Positions 10,731-33,996 of a stretch of DNA of 64,000 nucleotides are shown here, piece after piece. Where the stretch lies: assembly GCF_024700885.2 (NCBI RefSeq), contig NZ_CP117016.1. One strand, 5' to 3'. Origin of the DNA: Escherichia coli (GTDB lineage Bacteria; Pseudomonadota; Gammaproteobacteria; Enterobacterales; Enterobacteriaceae). A program made the position numbers and the translations under genes. Each line of letters opens with the position of its first letter. The stretch's first letter is position 1. The notes beneath the pieces were generated by a model. That model searched no databases. It was not told the DNA's origin and was given only the letters and a program-made list of their open reading frames with translations.

Positions 10731-11471
10731 ATGTTAGATCAAGTATGCCAGCTTGCACGGAATGCAGGCGATGCCATTATGCAGGTCTACGACGGGACGA
10801 AACCGATGGACGTCGTCAGCAAAGCGGACAATTCTCCGGTAACGGCAGCGGATATTGCCGCACACACCGTTATCATGGACGGTTTACGTACGCTGACACC
10901 GGATATTCCGGTCCTTTCTGAAGAAGATCCTCCCGGTTGGGAAGTCCGTCAGCACTGGCAGCGTTACTGGCTGGTAGATCCGCTGGATGGTACTAAAGAG
11001 TTTATTAAACGTAATGGCGAATTTACCGTTAACATTGCGCTCATCGACCACGGCAAACCGATTTTAGGTGTGGTGTATGCGCCGGTAATGAACGTAATGT
11101 ACAGCGCGGCAGAAGGCAAAGCGTGGAAAGAAGAGTGCGGCGTGCGCAAGCAGATTCAGGTCCGTGATGCGCGCCCGCCGCTGGTGGTTATCAGCCGTTC
11201 CCATGCAGATGCGGAGCTGAAAGAGTATCTGCAACAGCTTGGCGAACATCAGACCACGTCCATCGGCTCTTCGCTGAAATTCTGCCTGGTGGCGGAAGGA
11301 CAGGCGCAGCTGTACCCGCGCTTCGGACCAACGAATATTTGGGACACCGCCGCTGGACATGCTGTGGCCGCAGCTGCCGGAGCGCACGTTCACGACTGGC
11401 AGGGTAAACCGCTGGATTACACTCCGCGCGAGTTGTTCCTGAATCCGGGGTTCAGAGTGTCTATTTACTAA
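10731..11471 (+). CDS. cysQ: 3'(2'),5'-bisphosphate nucleotidase CysQ
   Basis: 246-aa ORF with inositol-monophosphatase family motifs (WLVDPLDGT). Confidence 0.95.
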
Positions 11472-11682
11472 ATTCAGATGGCAGAAACAGTGTATTTCCT
11501 GATTCTGCCATCCTGATTTCTCCCAACCTAAAAAGTTATAAATAAAAAGAGATTGTATTTAAAGTGCAAAAGTTCAATTGCTAATAAGTTATATTTTAAT
11601 AATGAGCGTTTTTTGATAGTTTACTTCTATAATGAGATATTTAATGGCGACATAAAATAACCAAATAAAATAAGGTAGCCAT

Positions 11683-12594
11683 ATGTTACCCAGGATCAGA
11701 CACAATAATTTTATTGGTGCGGTGGAGTTATTCGTAAAATCATCGCATACAAAAACACATTCAAACAATTTTTTTAACAATATCCAGCATGCATTTAATA
11801 AAAAAGATTGGATTTCAAATTATGATAGCCTGTTAACTTTGAGGGAGTTCTTTCGTTGCGCAACTCAGATTGATAAAAATAGTTATCAGGTACTTTCATC
11901 AAAAAATGAAACTGTTAACGCCATGGATAAGTTTCTTATCAGTTTCAGCCTTAAAGATAACGGTGCCGAATATATAATGACATTGCGAGGCAGTGGATTT
12001 GAATACGAAGAAATTCCCATAACAATAAATGAGTATAACTCATTCATGGATTTCAAAAACCGCGAGTTTCCGTTAGAACAAAACAGAAGATTGTATGCCT
12101 GGGATATTCTGCAGAAAAAACAGTCTGACATACCGGAAAGGATTAAAGGTTATATTCGCCAGGCGTTTGGTGACGTGTCTTTAGGTTATGCTGTATTGGA
12201 TGATATAGTAAGTAAATTAAAACGGGGTAAATTTGACCCCCAAATTCCAGGAGGTGGAATTAAAGAATGCGATGGATGGTATATTTACGAAAAAATAATT
12301 GATGATAATTTTGCCATAGTCATAGAATCTTTGGGCTTTGCGCTTAAAATCTATGGAGGGGATGAACGTTTTCGTAATGGTTCCTCTGTTGTTTTGGAGG
12401 ATGAAGATTACTCTCTTATTTATAATTTTCTGGTTAATGCAGGTTGCCAACAAGTCGAATTAGCCGAACAAGTGGATGCGATAGTAAGTGCGAATCTGGC
12501 CGCAGATAGTGATATTACCGAAGAAAAGATTTGCGAGAAATATAAATCGACCATTGAGGCGTTTAAAAAAAAGCAACTAGCGTTACCAGTATGA
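11683..12594 (+). CDS. ytfI: Uncharacterised protein YtfI (AT-rich gene)
   Basis: 303-aa ORF in a markedly AT-rich segment, recognised as the ytfI product; function unknown. Confidence 0.65.
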   Translation: MLPRIRHNNFIGAVELFVKSSHTKTHSNNFFNNIQHAFNKKDWISNYDSLLTLREFFRCATQIDKNSYQVLSSKNETVNAMDKFLISFSLKDNGAEYIMTLRGSGFEYEEIPITINEYNSFMDFKNREFPLEQNRRLYAWDILQKKQSDIPERIKGYIRQAFGDVSLGYAVLDDIVSKLKRGKFDPQIPGGGIKECDGWYIYEKIIDDNFAIVIESLGFALKIYGGDERFRNGSSVVLEDEDYSLIYNFLVNAGCQQVELAEQVDAIVSANLAADSDITEEKICEKYKSTIEAFKKKQLALPV

Positions 12595-12683
12595 GTTCGG
12601 CGTAAGAACTCAGAGGCTTAATTCCCCTATCCCATAGATAACGATAGGGGAAAATTATTTTTGCAGAATTTATGTTATTGCCA

Positions 12684-13238
12684 TTATTTGAGCAACTTTT
12701 GCAGCAGGCCCATCACTTGCTGTACCTCTTCCGGTGTGAGCGCCCCGTCTTTGGCCCATTGCACGCGACCGTCTTTATCCAGCACCACTACAGCGGAACT
12801 TTCTTCATCCAGCTGCCAGGCACCGCGCGCGACGCCATTGCTATCGACAATAAACTGCGACCAGGGATAAAGCTTTTTATTACTCTCCAGACTGCTGCGC
12901 ACAAACATCCCTGAACCCGGAATCGCGTCGTCGGTGTTAACAATGGTGGTGGTCTGGTAACGATCGTGCGGTAACTTTGCTGATTTAATCGCTTCAATCA
13001 GCGTCGCGTTTTTCTCTTTTGCAGAGGTGCGACCAGCAATATGTTGCAGTACTCGCACTTTTCCCACTAACTGCGCGCTGTTCCAGGTTTTGTAGCTAAA
13101 CTGATCTTTATCAAGCACCAACTCGCCCCGATCGGTAATGCCAATCGGCGGCACTCGCTGACCGGTTTCGAACTGATGTGCGGAAGCCATCATCGGCAAC
13201 AGCAGGCAGGTGAGTGCCAGAATCTTGCGTAGGGTCAT
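12684..13238 (-). CDS. ytfJ: Periplasmic protein YtfJ (signal peptide, thioredoxin-like fold family)
   Basis: 184-aa ORF with N-terminal signal peptide, recognised as YtfJ. Confidence 0.85.
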   Translation of the reverse strand: MTLRKILALTCLLLPMMASAHQFETGQRVPPIGITDRGELVLDKDQFSYKTWNSAQLVGKVRVLQHIAGRTSAKEKNATLIEAIKSAKLPHDRYQTTTIVNTDDAIPGSGMFVRSSLESNKKLYPWSQFIVDSNGVARGAWQLDEESSAVVVLDKDGRVQWAKDGALTPEEVQQVMGLLQKLLK

Positions 13239-13562
13239 GGTGTTTCCTTCTTATGATATGCAGGTGATCCGACCACTTGGGTCTGAGTTTTAATCATATG
13301 TGCTATTTATCGAATTTCCCGCAAGTGTGATGCCAGTTTGCGGTCAAGCGCACAAATCATATGAAAAATGAATGCTTATACTGAAGACCGCGCTTCGGTA
13401 AAAAGATAATTCTGAATAATTGTAACCTTTAGGTAAAAAAAGTTATACGCGGTGGAAACATTGCCCGGATAGTCTATAGTCACTAAGCATTAAAATTTGC
13501 GCCTCATAATAGTTGGGCCGATTGTGGCACCGCACAGGCGTAATACTCAGCAGGAGATAACA

Positions 13563-13769
13563 ATGAAAATTTTCCAACGGTACAACCCACTTCAGGTGGC
13601 GAAGTACGTAAAGATCCTGTTCCGTGGACGGTTATACATCAAGGACGTTGGCGCTTTTGAATTTGATAAGGGTAAGATTCTTATCCCAAAAGTGAAGGAT
13701 AAGCTGCATTTGTCAGTGATGTCCGAAGTTAACCGTCAGGTTATGCGTCTGCAAACAGAGATGGCTTAA
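13563..13769 (+). CDS. ytfK: Small protein YtfK (DUF1107)
   Basis: Start moved to internal ATG ([11 protein letters not shown]...) for the expected 68 aa. Confidence 0.8.
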
Positions 13770-13830
13770 CCAAAGTGCTATGCAGTAATAAGACGGCTCC
13801 TGATTCAGGAGCCGTTGATGTTTCTGGGGG

Positions 13831-15174
13831 TTACGCGACGCTTTCTTCTTTATCTTTAGCATCAGGCAATTTTGGCGAAAGGGCGGTGGCCTTGCTGTCG
13901 ATCCGGGTCACCAGCAGCTGGTCGATGCGGTAGTTATCGATATCCACCACTTCAAATTTGTAGCCGGCGAATTTCACCGAATCGGTGCGTTTCGGGATCT
14001 TACGCAGCATAAACATCATAAAGCCGCCGATGGTTTCGTAGTTGCCCGACTGCGGGAACTCGTCAATATCCAGCACGCGCATGACGTCGTCAATCGGAGT
14101 GCCGCCGTCAATCAGCCATGAGTTCTCATCACGGGCGACAATCTGCTCTTCCAGCCCCTGACCGACCAGATCGCCCATCAGCGTGGTCATCACGTCGTTG
14201 AGGGTGATGATCCCCACCACCAGCGCGTACTCGTTCATGATCACCGCGAAGTCTTCACCTGCGGTTTTAAAACTTTCCAACGCCTCTGAAAGGGTTAACG
14301 TATCCGGCACAATCAGCGTGTTGCGAATTTGTACGCCGCTGTTCAGTGCCAGGCTTTGGTTAGCCAGCACGCGGTTCAGCAGGTCTTTAGAATCGACATA
14401 GCCGATGATGTGGTCAATATCTTCATTACAGACGAGGAACTTAGAGTGCGGATGTTCCGCCACCTTATTCTTCAGACTTTGCTCATCTTCGTGGAGATCA
14501 AACCAAATCACGTTTTCACGCGGTGTCATTGACGACGGAACGGTACGGGATTCCAGCTCAAAGACGTTTTCAATCAGCTCGTGTTCCTGTTTACGTAACA
14601 CGCCCGCCAGCGCACCGGCTTCCACTACCGCGTAGATGTCATCAGAAGTGATGTCATCTTTACGTACCATTGGCAGTTTGAAAATACGGAAGATCATGTT
14701 CGCCAGTCCGTTGAAGAACCACACCAGCGGGGTGCAAACGTACAGGCAGAAGCGCATCGGGTTGATGATACGCAAAGCCACCGCTTCTGGCGCAATCATA
14801 CCGATGCGTTTCGGGGTTAAATCCGCAAACAGGATAAACATGCCAGTCACTAACGAGAAAGAGAGAATAAAGCTCAGTTGCTCAGAGAGTTCTGCCGACA
14901 TATAGCGGGAGAACAGGCTGTGAAAAGCTGGAGAAAATGCCGCATCACCGACGATACCGCCGAGAATCGCCACTGCGTTCAGACCGATTTGGACCACGGT
15001 AAAGAACATGCCGGGATTTTCCTGCATATTCAGAACGCGTTGGGCATTTATATTGCCTTCATCAGCCAGCAGTTTAAGTTTGATTTTGCGTGAGGCCGCA
15101 AGCGAGATCTCGGACATCGAGAAGAACGCACTTACAGCGATCAAACAGAGTATGACTAAAATACTGTTTAACAT
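13831..15174 (-). CDS. ytfL: CNNM/HlyC-family inner membrane protein with CBS domains, YtfL (PaeA)
   Basis: 447-aa ORF with N-terminal TM domain, CBS pair and C-terminal CorC/HlyC-type domain. Confidence 0.9.
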   Translation of the reverse strand: MLNSILVILCLIAVSAFFSMSEISLAASRKIKLKLLADEGNINAQRVLNMQENPGMFFTVVQIGLNAVAILGGIVGDAAFSPAFHSLFSRYMSAELSEQLSFILSFSLVTGMFILFADLTPKRIGMIAPEAVALRIINPMRFCLYVCTPLVWFFNGLANMIFRIFKLPMVRKDDITSDDIYAVVEAGALAGVLRKQEHELIENVFELESRTVPSSMTPRENVIWFDLHEDEQSLKNKVAEHPHSKFLVCNEDIDHIIGYVDSKDLLNRVLANQSLALNSGVQIRNTLIVPDTLTLSEALESFKTAGEDFAVIMNEYALVVGIITLNDVMTTLMGDLVGQGLEEQIVARDENSWLIDGGTPIDDVMRVLDIDEFPQSGNYETIGGFMMFMLRKIPKRTDSVKFAGYKFEVVDIDNYRIDQLLVTRIDSKATALSPKLPDAKDKEESVA

Positions 15175-31905: not shown

Positions 31906-33258
31906 ATGGCACTTGCAATGAAAGTAATCTCTCAAGTTGAAGCGCAGCGCAAGATTCTGGAAGAAGCAGTTTCCACTGCGCTGGAGTTGGCCTCAGGCAA
32001 ATCGGACGGTGCGGAAGTTGCCGTCAGCAAGACCACCGGCATTAGCGTAAGCACGCGTTATGGTGAAGTGGAGAATGTTGAATTCAATAGCGATGGCGCG
32101 TTGGGGATCACTGTTTATCACCAGAACCGCAAAGGTAGCGCATCGTCTACCGATTTAAGCCCGCAGGCCATTGCCCGCACCGTACAGGCGGCACTGGATA
32201 TTGCCCGTTATACCTCGCCAGATCCCTGTGCCGGCGTGGCAGACAAAGAGCTGCTGGCCTTTGACGCACCGGATCTCGACTTGTTCCACCCTGCGGAAGT
32301 TTCCCCGGATGAAGCCATTGAACTGGCGGCCCGCGCAGAACAGGCGGCATTGCAGGCGGACAAACGCATCACCAATACCGAAGGCGGCAGCTTTAACAGC
32401 CACTACGGTGTCAAAGTTTTCGGCAACAGCCACGGCATGTTGCAGGGTTACTGCTCTACGCGTCATTCGCTCTCCAGCTGTGTAATTGCTGAAGAAAATG
32501 GCGATATGGAGCGTGATTACGCCTACACCATTGGTCGTGCGATGAGCGATCTGCAAACGCCAGAGTGGGTTGGGGCCGACTGTGCTCGCCGTACTTTATC
32601 GCGCCTGTCACCGCGTAAACTCTCCACCATGAAAGCGCCGGTCATTTTTGCCAATGAAGTGGCAACCGGGCTTTTTGGGCATCTGGTGGGGGCGATAGCG
32701 GGTGGATCGGTTTACCGTAAATCTACCTTCCTGCTGGATTCGCTGGGTAAACAAATTCTGCCGGACTGGCTGACCATTGAAGAGCATCCGCATCTGCTGA
32801 AAGGGCTGGCCTCTACGCCATTCGACAGCGAAGGTGTGCGCACCGAGCGTCGCGATATTATTAAAGATGGCATTCTGACTCAGTGGCTGCTGACCAGCTA
32901 CTCGGCGCGGAAACTGGGGCTGAAAAGCACTGGACACGCAGGCGGTATTCACAACTGGCGGATTGCCGGACAAGGGCTAAGCTTCGAACAAATGCTCAAA
33001 GAGATGGGTACCGGGCTGGTGGTGACGGAGCTGATGGGCCAGGGCGTGAGTGCCATTACCGGTGATTATTCCCGTGGTGCAGCGGGCTTCTGGGTAGAGA
33101 ATGGCGAAATTCAGTATCCTGTTAGTGAAATCACCATCGCAGGTAATTTGAAAGATATGTGGCGCAATATTGTCACCGTCGGTAACGATATTGAAACACG
33201 CAGTAATATACAGTGTGGTTCTGTGCTGTTGCCGGAGATGAAAATCGCCGGGCAGTAA
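31906..33258 (+). CDS. pmbA: Metalloprotease PmbA (TldE)
   Basis: 450-aa ORF recognised as PmbA. Confidence 0.95.
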
Positions 33259-33961: not shown

Positions 33962-33996
33962 ATGTAATGCATATGTAATGCTATAATGCATTACAC
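33962..33996. promoter_or_regulatory. Candidate operator/promoter of the relBE-like pair: repeated TGTAATGC motifs and palindrome TAATGCATTA overlapping a TATAAT -10 box
   Basis: Repeat motifs read directly from sequence 25-60 bp upstream of the antitoxin start. Confidence 0.4.

Follow-up and report, generated by a model that had tools for sequence, protein, structure and literature searches.

Based on the analysis reported here, we suggest that the 324-bp gap between the divergently transcribed genes ytfJ and ytfK (13239-13562) is very probably a bidirectional control region that is packed with elements for both genes, and in which almost half of the bases are strongly constrained. The gap is part of a window of 64,000 nucleotides of E. 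coli DNA, which between 13200 and 13600 is 100% identical to K-12 MG1655. According to the list of open reading frames and the RefSeq annotation, it is bounded by the coding sequence of ytfJ (12684-13238, minus strand), which encodes a periplasmic YtfJ family protein (PF09695), and by that of ytfK (13563-13769, plus strand), which encodes a 68-aa DUF1107 protein described in the literature as an activator of SpoT. The initial annotation had drawn the limits of the gap exactly in this way and had described it as a regulatory region, a description borne out by published promoters and sites together with strong conservation. That the gap is regulatory was already known, and the finding as first written adds little. 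In published work, the gap holds two ytfK promoters, a CRP site, two Pho boxes defined in vitro, an RcsB box (in Salmonella), a sigma-54 promoter and a sigma-E-dependent ytfJ start. Experimental work by others concerns the two ytfK promoters, CRP binding and dependence, sigma-54 occupancy and PhoB-dependent expression, as well as RcsB binding (in Salmonella only) and, as cited from Yoshida 2011, PhoB binding in vitro. Conservation, rigid spacing, matrix scores and RNA covariation were computed here, while the exact start sites, a reassigned CRP site, cross-talk between sigma-54 and the distal ytfK promoter and a function of the leader RNA are what we infer.

Conservation was computed over the orthologous gaps from 76 Enterobacteriaceae. 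In these gaps, 154 of the 324 columns (48%) are at least 90% conserved as compared to 11% of the third codon positions of ytfJ, and the length of the gap is kept at 318-336 bp across genera (79 loci). Three spacings are invariant in 76 of 76 orthologues, i.e. the 5-nt spacer of the sigma-54 promoter, the 22 nt from a CRP-like site to the -10 of the distal ytfK promoter P2, and the 20 nt from this -10 to the RcsB box. Moreover, the segment 13315-13450 has a fixed length in the 76 orthologues, even where its sequence varies freely. The P2 -10, the -10 of the proximal promoter P1 and the ytfK leader are retained in genomes without ytfJ (Edwardsiella, Brenneria and Lonsdalea) and, therefore, serve ytfK. 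The sigma-54 site and the two conserved blocks on the ytfJ side are found in Enterobacteriaceae only.

The gap had also been described as AT-rich and unusually long. The former holds, with a GC content of 0.41 as compared to 0.507 for the window. The latter holds in part: in the surrounding 100 kb of MG1655, which has 19 divergent gene pairs with gaps of 70-354 bp (median 192 bp), the ytfJ-ytfK gap ranks third in length, in the upper range but without being an outlier. A length inside the local range and a GC content of 41%, which is ordinary for E. coli intergenic DNA, would both suit an AT-rich spacer whose length has no functional meaning. However, conservation and published binding data already refute such a spacer, which we consider next to impossible, because columns are far more conserved than synonymous positions in ytfJ, gap length is kept across genera and multiple experimentally supported sites lie inside the gap. 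Instead, the gap is long because it is full of control elements; the sigma-54 promoter, the CRP-type site, the distal promoter, the RcsB box and the leader RNA, all of them unforeseen in the initial annotation, explain most of its length. Transcription starts close to the start codons had been named as an observation that would tell against an extended regulatory region. For ytfK, the starts that are inferred here or reported are ~76, 111 and 174 nt from the gene; for ytfJ, the distances are 24 and 71 nt. In two Cappable-seq data sets, no transcription start was found for this gap.

By contrast, the direct-repeat-like CTG...A motifs that had been noted in the gap are no commoner than expected by chance in shuffled sequences. 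CTG is present in three copies (13283, 13381 and 13412; 3.9 expected), CTGA in three copies (1.2 expected, P=0.11) and CTGT.A in zero copies. Two of the three CTGA copies fall within other elements, i.e. the distal -10 region TATACTGA and the TTCTGA of the RcsB box. In Erwinia, Pantoea and Serratia, a canonical CTGTCAT/CTGTCAA half-site stands in the alignment where E. coli has CTGAATA (13412); judging from these alignments, CTGAATA may be a decayed version of what was once a real half-site for a response regulator. A repeated 9-mer, AATCATATG, of a kind for which we estimate ~0.2 occurrences by chance in 324 bp, was dropped as its second copy is not conserved.

In the model that we propose for the ytfK side, a CRP-type site centred ~41.5 bp upstream of the start would drive the distal promoter P2. 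The P2 -10 hexamer TATACT (13377-13382, plus strand; inferred start 13388-13390, leader ~174 nt) is invariant in the 76 orthologues. It is likewise found in Erwinia, Pantoea, Ewingella and Serratia fonticola, while Brenneria and Lonsdalea, both of which lack ytfJ, have close variants. When the published fusion fragments and CRP truncations are placed on the window via the published primers, TATACT falls within the P2 fusion fragment (13220-13451), which is active, and is not part of the P1 fragment (13383-13629). P2 requires CRP and cAMP and is repressed by glucose. The published CRP site, TGTGATGCCAGTTTGC (site A, 13326-13341), was defined using mobility-shift truncations and a deletion (Meyer 2021). 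In the 76 orthologues, site A matches the CRP core at 6/10 positions only in Escherichia and at 1-5/10 elsewhere, and it shares bases with the -24 element of the sigma-54 promoter that faces ytfJ. The conserved CRP-like palindrome TGCGG-N6-GCACA (site B, 13339-13354), on the other hand, matches the core at 7/10 or 8/10 positions in 76/76 orthologues, and its centre is at -41.5/-42.5 from the inferred P2 start, with the 22 nt to the P2 -10 fixed in all of them. In E. coli, site B matches 7/10 positions of the core and, by hand count, 12/22 of the full consensus. Because 7/10 matches to the core are common by chance (~6 per kb), only conservation and position favour site B. The published truncation at 13342 and the deletion of 13326-13341 destroy site B as well, and the published CRP data do not separate site A from site B. 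On the sequence evidence, site B would fit the distal promoter better than site A, and we propose that it could be the ancestral CRP site for this promoter. In other words, the published assignment may be off by 13 bp. P2 shares with class II CRP-dependent promoters a TGNGN-N6-NCACA palindrome 22 bp from a good -10 and no usable -35 (AAATCA); it differs in that the core match is only 7/10, the start is only inferred and the published 16-mer overlaps site B but lies 13 bp further upstream. A third CRP-like 22-mer (13296-13317, 15/22 in E. coli) was discarded: conservation does not extend to its right half, and CRP binding does not need this region, as shown by the published truncation that begins at 13315. 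The P2 leader as a whole has no exceptional folding (z = +0.4).

Whichever of the two CRP sites is the real one, it clashes with a sigma-54 promoter on which the ytfK literature is silent. This promoter, CTGGCAT-CACAC-TTGCG (13320-13336, minus strand), which was found from the conservation pattern, faces ytfJ with a predicted start at ~13309 and a 71-nt leader. Its motif TGGCATCACACTTGCG matches TGGCAC-N5-TTGCW at 9/11 positions, including the GG at -24 and the GC at -12; in the 76 orthologues, both elements are near-invariant and the 5-nt spacer is invariant. It is identical to the ChIP-seq site OS42 (Bonocora 2015), which has a score of 34, is the seventh of 42 canonical sites by strength and lies 71 nt from ytfJ. 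The site was also detected by ChIP-chip, and ytfJ primers are listed for ChIP-qPCR in Salmonella. Occupancy is strong, with no known activator and no transcription under the conditions tested. In our model, sigma-54 RNA polymerase would sit at 13320-13336 awaiting an activator. The -24 GG, the -12 GC, the 5-nt spacer and the strong occupancy by inactive holoenzyme are common to sigma-54 promoters such as glnAp2, pspA and zraP, and the ytfJ site is likewise conserved in related species; however, the ytfJ promoter is without a known activator, enhancer or inducing condition, and it is packed tightly against a CRP-type site and a sigma-70 promoter of opposite orientation. Because the CRP-type site adjoins or overlaps the sigma-54 promoter, binding on one side should affect the other, and the sigma-54 holoenzyme at the ytfJ promoter may repress ytfK. 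On expression of rpoN in a deletion strain, ytfK RNA decreased from 516 to 100 and ytfJ RNA from 88 to 24, decreases that are confounded by a drop across the sigma-S regulon in the same experiment.

A conserved block with rigid spacing is present at -93 to -139 of the predicted sigma-54 start and is common to ytfK control. This block (13402-13448) might have a second role as the enhancer of the ytfJ sigma-54 promoter, in which case the spacing would reflect activator-polymerase geometry. Strong sigma-54 occupancy despite the lack of a known activator or observed transcription, the fixed length of 13315-13450 and a 9-bp palindrome within the block (ATTCTGAAT, 13409-13417) would all be in line with such a dual role. 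We nevertheless consider it unlikely. The block, comprising the RcsB box and the downstream repeat, survives in an altered form in genomes without ytfJ and without the sigma-54 site and, therefore, its primary client is ytfK. Also, scans of the gap with the NtrC and GlrR consensus sequences gave matches at chance level, and no activator gene is present near the gap in the local gene map.

Closer to ytfJ, a further 5' end has been reported as sigma-E dependent. It maps 24 nt upstream of the ytfJ start codon (13262, minus strand) and was published as 4437309 in old coordinates, which we converted by +1977 and checked against the coordinate of the sigma-54 motif. It is surrounded by an invariant 19-nt block, GCAGGTGATCCGACCACTT (13260-13278), which is at least 90% conserved in the 76 Enterobacteriaceae gaps and absent in Erwinia and Serratia. 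The block is single copy in E. coli genomes, which rules it out as a dispersed repeat. A second conserved block in these gaps, TTTAATCATA..TGC, is at 13289-13305. Because the spacing between the two blocks varies by 7-10 nt, they are not the -35 and -10 of one promoter. The best match on the ytfJ strand to the sigma-E promoter GGAACTT-N15-17-TCTGA is 8/12, which is at chance level and not positioned at 13262, and a sigma-E consensus at ytfJ was, therefore, rejected; the -10-like TCGGA at 13272-13268 is the sole sigma-E-like element near the reported start. The main text of the 2006 paper on the sigma-E regulon does not include ytfJ. A terminator-like hairpin (13266-13283, plus strand) was rejected as its 3' arm is not conserved, and no RNA structure was found in the ytfJ leader (z = +0.7).

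Downstream of P2, the model would place the RcsB box, then a PhoB/OmpR-family direct repeat and then the stationary-phase proximal promoter P1. The conserved RcsB box, AAAGATAATTCTGA (13402-13415), matches 7/8 informative positions of TN(G/A)GAN4TC(T/C)NA (TNRGAN4TCYNA) and, thus, has the sequence of an RcsB-regulated promoter. Binding was shown only for its Salmonella counterpart, TTAGATAATTCTGA, which binds phosphorylated RcsB in mobility-shift assays and is at -50 to -36 of the Salmonella start. This start corresponds to ~13452, i.e. to neither P1 nor P2, and suggests a third ytfK promoter. The P1 -10 region CTATAGT (13474-13480, plus strand) is of the sigma-S/sigma-70 type, in line with the description of P1 as sigma-S-like in the ytfK literature; its inferred start is ~13487 with a leader of ~76 nt. 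It is invariant in the 76 orthologues, and in Erwinia, Pantoea and Edwardsiella it takes the form TCTATAGT; TGGAAA-16-TATAGT is the sole sigma-70-type match in the promoter scan. Fur control of ytfK has been cited only from expression data. The best match in the gap to the 19-bp Fur box GATAATGATAATCATTATC is 12/19, which is at chance level (~2 per kb) and rules out a recognisable Fur site. A scan of the gap with the IHF consensus also gave matches at chance level.

The reading of this region in terms of PhoB is partly supported. The initial annotation had stated that ytfK is induced by phosphate starvation and linked to the stringent response, both of which the literature confirms, and had considered Pho-box-like elements plausible. 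A PhoB-type direct repeat, TGTAACC-TTTA-GGTAAAA (TGTAACCTTTAGGTAAAA, 13421-13438, plus strand; referred to as Pho box I), is indeed present, and it is not one of the CTG...A motifs; however, its score is low, the second box is poor and PhoB was not detected by ChIP. In the weight-matrix scan, for which the lack of any Pho box above threshold had been named as a refutation, box I is weak but present with a score of 11.06. The matrix is based on 59 ChIP-seq PhoB sites, which score 6.7-23.5 (10th percentile 10.6, median 15.1). Thus, box I scores just above the 10th percentile of true sites and ranks 10 of ~128,000 window positions; one of the nine positions that outscore it is a bound site. Box I faces ytfK, is the best PhoB matrix hit in 76/76 orthologous gaps (median score 11.5) and conforms, weakly, to an 18-bp Pho box with two 7-bp TGTCA-type repeats at an 11-bp period. 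The candidate Pho box II (13443-13460, plus strand) is in phase with box I and overlaps the P1 -35 region; it is weak, with a matrix score of at most ~1.8 in all orthologues. Its half-site GGAAACA (13454) is at the 98.8th percentile, while TTATACG (13443) is poor.

The geometry is also off. Box I ends 36 bp before TATAGT (13475), which is ~22 bp too far upstream to replace the P1 -35. Box II ends 14 bp before the P1 -10, whereas a box that replaces the -35 would be ~10 bp from the -10 and this gap is 9-10 bp in the phoA and pstS promoters; box II is, therefore, half a helical turn out of register. The ytfK promoter has in common with those of the Pho regulon (pstS, phoA, phoE and ugpB) TGTNAN half-sites repeated every 11 bp on the coding strand, a weak -35 downstream of them and PhoB-dependent expression; the P1 -10 TATAGT is identical to the phoA -10. 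It differs from them in that its box scores 11, as compared to 23.5 for the best-scoring bound site, its second box is nearly unrecognisable, its register to the -10 is ~5 bp off, it is without in vivo occupancy by ChIP, and induction is 4-fold as compared to hundreds-fold at pstS.

Two explanations for the PhoB dependence of ytfK can be weighed against these data. In the first, P1 is a classical Pho promoter at which phosphorylated PhoB bound to 13421-13438 and 13443-13460 contacts sigma-70, substituting for a -35 element, and directly activates transcription in phosphate starvation. Papers that cite Yoshida 2011 report PhoB binding to two ytfK boxes in vitro and 15-fold induction. In RNA-seq, ytfK is at 1538/846 in wild type and 327/212 in a phoB deletion (log2 2.1, i.e. 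4.4-fold lower). Moreover, the ytfK promoter serves biotechnology as a phosphate-regulated part, ytfK is induced 4.9-fold in a Citrobacter pstCA mutant, and the rank and orientation of box I in all 76 orthologues also support a direct effect. However, two genome-wide studies, by ChIP-seq and ChIP-chip, detected no PhoB at ytfK in vivo, and the authors called the PhoB dependence indirect and excluded ytfK from the direct regulon, although weak sites could have been missed because the tagged PhoB used for ChIP-seq is ~8-fold impaired. The low-end score of box I, with nine higher-scoring positions of which one is bound, and the poor, misplaced box II also argue against a direct effect, as does the repeat outside Enterobacteriaceae, where its period is 10 bp and its PhoB scores are 3-6.6. 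On balance, we see direct activation by PhoB as a serious possibility that falls short of being probable.

In the second explanation, the effect of PhoB is indirect, and the repeat is read by a putative other OmpR-family regulator, e.g. CpxR, or by RNA polymerase as the core of a middle, RcsB-activated promoter with a start at ~13452. The negative ChIP data in combination with PhoB-dependent expression are as expected for an indirect effect. The repeat matches GTAAA-N6-GTAAA at 9/10 positions, and its period is 10 bp in distant relatives. The CpxR consensus also has a 10-bp period; its spacer, however, is N5 and not N6. The induction of ytfK by overproduced envelope, lipoprotein and pilus proteins is consistent with such a regulator, while CpxR control of ytfK is not reported in the literature searched. 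As for a middle promoter, the RcsB box begins 50 bp before the Salmonella start, so that box I falls over the spacer and -10 of this promoter, and TAAACT or TATACT is present at 13438-13443 in most genera; by contrast, the putative middle -10 in E. coli, AAAAGT, is a poor match. We regard this second explanation as credible while doubting that it is the correct one. Thus, the dispute over whether ytfK is a direct PhoB target narrows to one weak, deeply conserved repeat with its geometry off.

Whether initiated at P1 or at P2, ytfK transcripts would contain a conserved leader element of two helices, placed shortly before the ribosome-binding site. This predicted structure (13498-13542, plus strand) has an outer helix, 13498-13504/13536-13542, and an inner hairpin, 13514-13520/13525-13532. 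Using RNAalifold on 64 sequences, 14 pairs were identified, six of which have compensatory changes. In these sequences, 97.5% of the leader cells are paired as compared to 29-56% in slid controls (95-97.5% and 25-56%, respectively, for both sets together), and 0/500 shuffles reach the observed values. A covariance model found the leader upstream of ytfK in six more distant genomes, and in seven more distant sequences 8/14 pairs have changes on both sides. In other words, the pairs are kept by compensatory substitutions, as is the case for conserved cis-acting structured RNAs. The single-sequence fold is unexceptional (z = -1.2), and Rfam 15 gave no match at E<=1 over 12500-14200 on both strands. 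From this covariation, we tentatively raise the possibility, itself rather doubtful, that the 45-nt element at 13498-13542 is an undescribed cis-regulatory RNA, which covaries across Enterobacterales including genomes without ytfJ. Structured enterobacterial 5' leaders, such as the ompA 5' stem-loop and Rfam cis-regulatory leaders, similarly have a conserved hairpin-in-helix with compensatory changes between the start and the ribosome-binding site. The ytfK leader differs from these in that it has no Rfam match, is preceded by ~11 unpaired nt, leaves the Shine-Dalgarno sequence unsequestered and has no known ligand, protein or sRNA partner.

Two candidate pairings of the leader were rejected. 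Pairing of the loop AUUGU with ACAAU at the start codon is possible in E. coli but is not kept in Klebsiella or Erwinia, and for the sRNA BhsB, the full-length duplex is no better than with shuffled targets. The only clean predicted BhsB duplex falls in the ytfK coding region. As for the translation start, an in-frame TTG at 13497 (90-aa open reading frame) was rejected because the leader has 1-2-nt indels between genera, and the Shine-Dalgarno sequence AGGAG (13552-13556, plus strand), as read from the sequence, is invariant. MazF is reported to cleave at the ACA preceding the ytfK AUG (13560-13562, plus strand), which leaves a 3-nt leader, and ytfK is part of the published "MazF-regulon"; this ACA is not conserved in all genera.

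The product of ytfK is a small protein that turns SpoT into a ppGpp synthetase. Because YtfK activates SpoT, the stringent response receives phosphate, carbon, envelope and stationary-phase signals through whatever determines the YtfK level. Among the elements described here, the ytfK leader RNA and the activator-less sigma-54 promoter are leads worth following. A covarying leader RNA that has no Rfam family and would sit on every ytfK transcript could be of interest to specialists, as could the narrowed PhoB dispute and the possible reassignment of the CRP site. If cis-regulatory, this leader could set YtfK synthesis post-transcriptionally. It would then also explain why, in Salmonella, sigma-S governs ytfK RNA without a matching effect on the protein. 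SpoT is switched from hydrolysing to synthesising ppGpp by the YtfK:SpoT ratio and, therefore, such a leader would give the stringent response an RNA-level input.

The region between the divergent genes ytfJ (12684-13238, minus strand) and ytfK (13563-13769, plus strand) lies exactly where the initial annotation placed it, at 13239-13562, and at 324 bp agrees with the length of ~320 bp given there. Across 13200-13600, the sequence is 100% identical to K-12 MG1655 (window coordinate + 4,426,024 = NC_000913.3 coordinate), and the gap is present at at least 99% identity in 5386 of 5426 complete E. coli genomes. Its GC content is 0.41 compared to 0.507 for the window. The gap had been called unusually long; it is long, ranking third among the 19 divergent gene pairs in the 100 kb of MG1655 around the locus, but it is no outlier (range 70-354 bp, median 192 bp). 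The proposed CTG...A motifs are not enriched in the gap, with three CTG (3.9 expected), three CTGA (1.2 expected; P=0.11) and no CTGT.A. The suggested sigma-70 promoter scan gave one match, TGGAAA-16-TATAGT at 13453-13480.

Footprinting drew on 80 loci from many Enterobacteriaceae genera, obtained by a scan limited to one genome per species. In 79 of them, ytfJ and ytfK stand side by side in divergent orientation, 318-336 bp apart. When 76 distinct gaps were aligned, conservation of at least 90% was seen at 154 of the 324 E. coli gap positions (48%); the same measure gives 11% for ytfJ third codon positions and 41% for ytfK, which is extremely conserved. The conserved blocks fall on the ytfJ ribosome-binding site, the -12 and -24 elements of a sigma-54 promoter facing ytfJ, the -10 TATACT (13377) of the distal ytfK promoter P2, an RcsB box, a repeat at 13421-13448, the -10 CTATAGT (13474) of the proximal ytfK promoter P1, a leader RNA and the ytfK Shine-Dalgarno sequence. 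Three distances are constant in 76/76 gaps, namely 5 nt for the sigma-54 spacer, 22 nt between GCACA and TATACT, and 20 nt between TATACT and the RcsB box, the last being fixed even though the sequence of 13383-13402 is free to vary. Because Edwardsiella, Brenneria and Lonsdalea, which lack ytfJ and have cysQ as the upstream neighbour of ytfK, retain the distal -10, the repeat, a CTATAG-like -10 and the leader, these four elements serve ytfK. By contrast, the sigma-54 promoter, a CRP-like palindrome and two invariant blocks at 13260-13278 and 13289-13305 are restricted to Enterobacteriaceae. These two blocks are single copy, with variable spacing between them, and contain no RNA structure and, by consensus scan, no sigma-E match; a GATC (Dam methylation) site at 13266-13269, in the middle of the first block, is invariant across Enterobacteriaceae. 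Separately, YtfK is 94-100% identical across all 80 loci, and third codon positions are conserved at 75% in ytfK and 54% in ytfJ; on these alignments, the constraint on YtfK is unusually strong for a 68-aa protein. On the other side of the locus, ytfI (11683-12594, plus strand) lies between cysQ and ytfJ in a block of 28-39% GC (11400-12650), and cysQ is directly next to ytfJ in Erwinia, Serratia and Ewingella, with no ytfI between them. Thus, ytfI looks like a later insertion that was probably horizontally acquired.

It is already known that this is a regulatory region with a link to phosphate. Meyer et al. 2021 (PMC8600398) described two independent ytfK promoters, of which the proximal, sigma-S-like P1 has two Pho boxes upstream (P1 fragment from the primers, 13383-13629). 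In Fitzgerald et al. 2023 (PMC10294691), PhoB ChIP-seq signal was absent at ytfK, as in an earlier ChIP-chip study, and the 4.4-fold PhoB dependence of ytfK was termed indirect; the tagged PhoB was ~8-fold impaired. We built a PhoB matrix from the 59 sites of the ChIP-seq study (true-site scores 6.7-23.5, 10th percentile 10.6, median 15.1). Of the Pho boxes that the initial annotation held plausible, one PhoB-type repeat was recovered, box I (TGTAACCTTTAGGTAAAA, 13421-13438, plus strand), with a score of 11.06 at the low end of this range, while the in-phase candidate box II (13443-13460) scores at most 1.8. Box I ranks 10th of ~128,000 window positions; only one of the nine better scorers, 33181-33198, is a bound site, and the matrix alone predicts poorly at a score of ~11. 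The aligned box, on the same strand, is the best match in 76/76 orthologous gaps (median 11.5), and the repeat is therefore under selection. The end of box II is 14 bp from the -10. In phoA and pstS, the Pho box is 9-10 bp from the -10.

The E. coli repeat also matches GTAAA-N6-GTAAA at 9/10 positions. Its homologous stretch in Erwinia, Pantoea, Serratia, Edwardsiella and Brenneria has a 10-bp period (TGTCAx-N4-TGTAAA-N4-...) and PhoB scores of only 3-6.6, and CTGTCAT there aligns to E. coli CTGAATA (13412). Judged from sequence, a response-regulator repeat is really present, and PhoB could plausibly bind it weakly; it is also possible that the repeat is read by another OmpR-family protein or is part of a middle promoter. 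Direct activation by PhoB in vivo is a candidate reading. The gap resembles Pho-regulon promoters in its PhoB-type repeat and PhoB-dependent expression but differs from them in the position of the boxes and the absence of PhoB occupancy in the published ChIP; for these two reasons, we do not list ytfK as a confirmed direct member of the regulon. Within the repeat, ACCT-TT-AGGT (13425-13434) is a perfect palindrome in Escherichia only (other genera ATCAAAAGGT), and it resembles the MqsA operator ACCT-N2-4-AGGT. Elsewhere in the window, the bound site 33181-33198 (GGTAACGATATTGAAACA) lies inside pmbA/tldE, and ~780 bp downstream TGTAATGCATATGTAATG (33963-33980) has the window's top PhoB score, 15.96, and is not among the published PhoB-bound sites.

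The sigma-54 promoter was seen first in the conservation pattern and matched to the literature later, so that each is an independent check on the other. Bonocora et al. 2015 (PMC4591121) reported a previously unknown minus-strand site, CTGGCATCACACTTGCG (window 13320-13336), at a distance of 71 nt from ytfJ. With a ChIP-seq score of 34, it ranks seventh among 42 canonical sites; there is overlap with a ChIP-chip region, their Salmonella ChIP-qPCR primer list includes ytfJ, and their conservation profile agrees with the restriction to Enterobacteriaceae. The ytfK paper (PMC8600398) makes no mention of sigma-54. The site has the sequence and the published occupancy of a sigma-54 promoter, with no known activator. 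In published RNA-seq (PMC4591121), ytfK dropped from 516 to 100, and ytfJ from 88 to 24, when rpoN was expressed in a deletion strain; because many sigma-S genes fell as well, this is not specific evidence. For ytfJ, a 5' end dependent on sigma-E (Dartigalongue 2001) has been listed under the old coordinate 4437309, i.e. window 13262.

P2 requires cAMP-CRP, is active on a fragment that the primers place at 13220-13451, and has CRP assigned to TGTGATGCCAGTTTGC, 13326-13341 (Meyer et al. 2021, PMC8600398). This 16-mer matches the CRP core at 6/10 positions in Escherichia and at only 1-5/10 in other genera, whereas the adjacent palindrome TGCGG-TCAAGC-GCACA (13339-13354) matches at 7/10 or 8/10 in 76/76; chance matches at 7/10 are frequent. 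The published truncation that abolishes binding (starting at 13342) and the published deletion (13326-13341) both destroy this palindrome too. Its centre is separated by 30.5 bp from the start of TATACT and so falls at -41.5/-42.5 of an inferred start at 13388-13389, a class II geometry, and the -35 position of P2 holds the non-consensus AAATCA. We infer that the CRP site is 13339-13354 and that P2 would work like a class II CRP promoter. Because the published site and the palindrome both abut or overlap the sigma-54 -24 element, CRP, P2 polymerase and a parked sigma-54 holoenzyme should compete.

In Salmonella, phosphorylated RcsB binds TTAGATAATTCTGA (Huesa et al. 2021, PMC7913699). This sequence lies 161 bp upstream of the start codon of ytfK and spans -50 to -36 relative to a Salmonella start site; in E. 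coli it corresponds to AAAGATAATTCTGA (13402-13415).

For 64 distinct sequences from the inferred P1 start (~13487) to the Shine-Dalgarno sequence, RNAalifold predicted an outer helix (13498-13504 with 13536-13542) and an inner hairpin (13514-13520 with 13525-13532, A13529 bulged), both on the plus strand. Compensatory changes occur at 6 of 14 pairs (one pair is CG in 26, UA in 26 and UG in 10 sequences), 97.5% of cells are paired compared to 29-56% with partners slid by 1-3 columns, and none of 500 shuffles reached the observed counts. With a covariance model from these sequences, the element was also recovered in Erwinia, Pantoea, two Serratia, Brenneria and Edwardsiella, six genomes at a greater distance, in each of which it directly precedes ytfK (E 6e-5 to 0.37, with conserved flanks contributing). 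The outer helix is rewritten in these genomes, e.g. GUGCUG/CAGCAC or GCGCUC/GAGCGC, and both sides have changed at 8 of 14 pairs. The evidence is comparative, since the single E. coli leader folds unexceptionally (z = -1.2). An Rfam search over 12500-14200 on both strands gave no match at E<=1. By its covariation, the predicted leader qualifies as a structured RNA, and it matches no described family. The predicted structure leaves the ribosome-binding site unoccluded. A putative role in the stability or translation of the mRNA would agree with the discrepancy reported in Salmonella between control of ytfK RNA and control of the protein. Also within the leader, TGGCACCGCACAGGCG (13525-13540, plus strand), 25 bp from the ytfK AUG, matches the sigma-54 pattern at 8/11 positions with GG and GC correctly spaced; this more probably reflects the helix sequence than a promoter.

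Further along the transcript, a predicted 11-bp duplex including one G-U joins CCAUGGAACAG, the first 11 nt of the sRNA BhsB, to CUGUUCCGUGG (13618-13628, ytfK codons 19-22); the BhsB-ytfK interaction was reported by RIL-seq, and its contact may be made within the coding sequence instead of the leader. An 11-bp GC-rich hairpin at 13792-13816, between the convergent ytfK and paeA, is probably their shared bidirectional terminator, because it has an intrinsic-terminator score on both strands. MazF is reported to cleave at the ACA (13560-13562) that immediately precedes the ytfK AUG, leaving a leader of 3 nt; such a cut would strip both the Shine-Dalgarno sequence and the structured leader.

As first submitted, the finding is low in interest. 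The leads that came out of it are modest but concrete, namely the leader RNA, the overlap of the CRP site with the sigma-54 promoter, and a narrowed dispute over PhoB.
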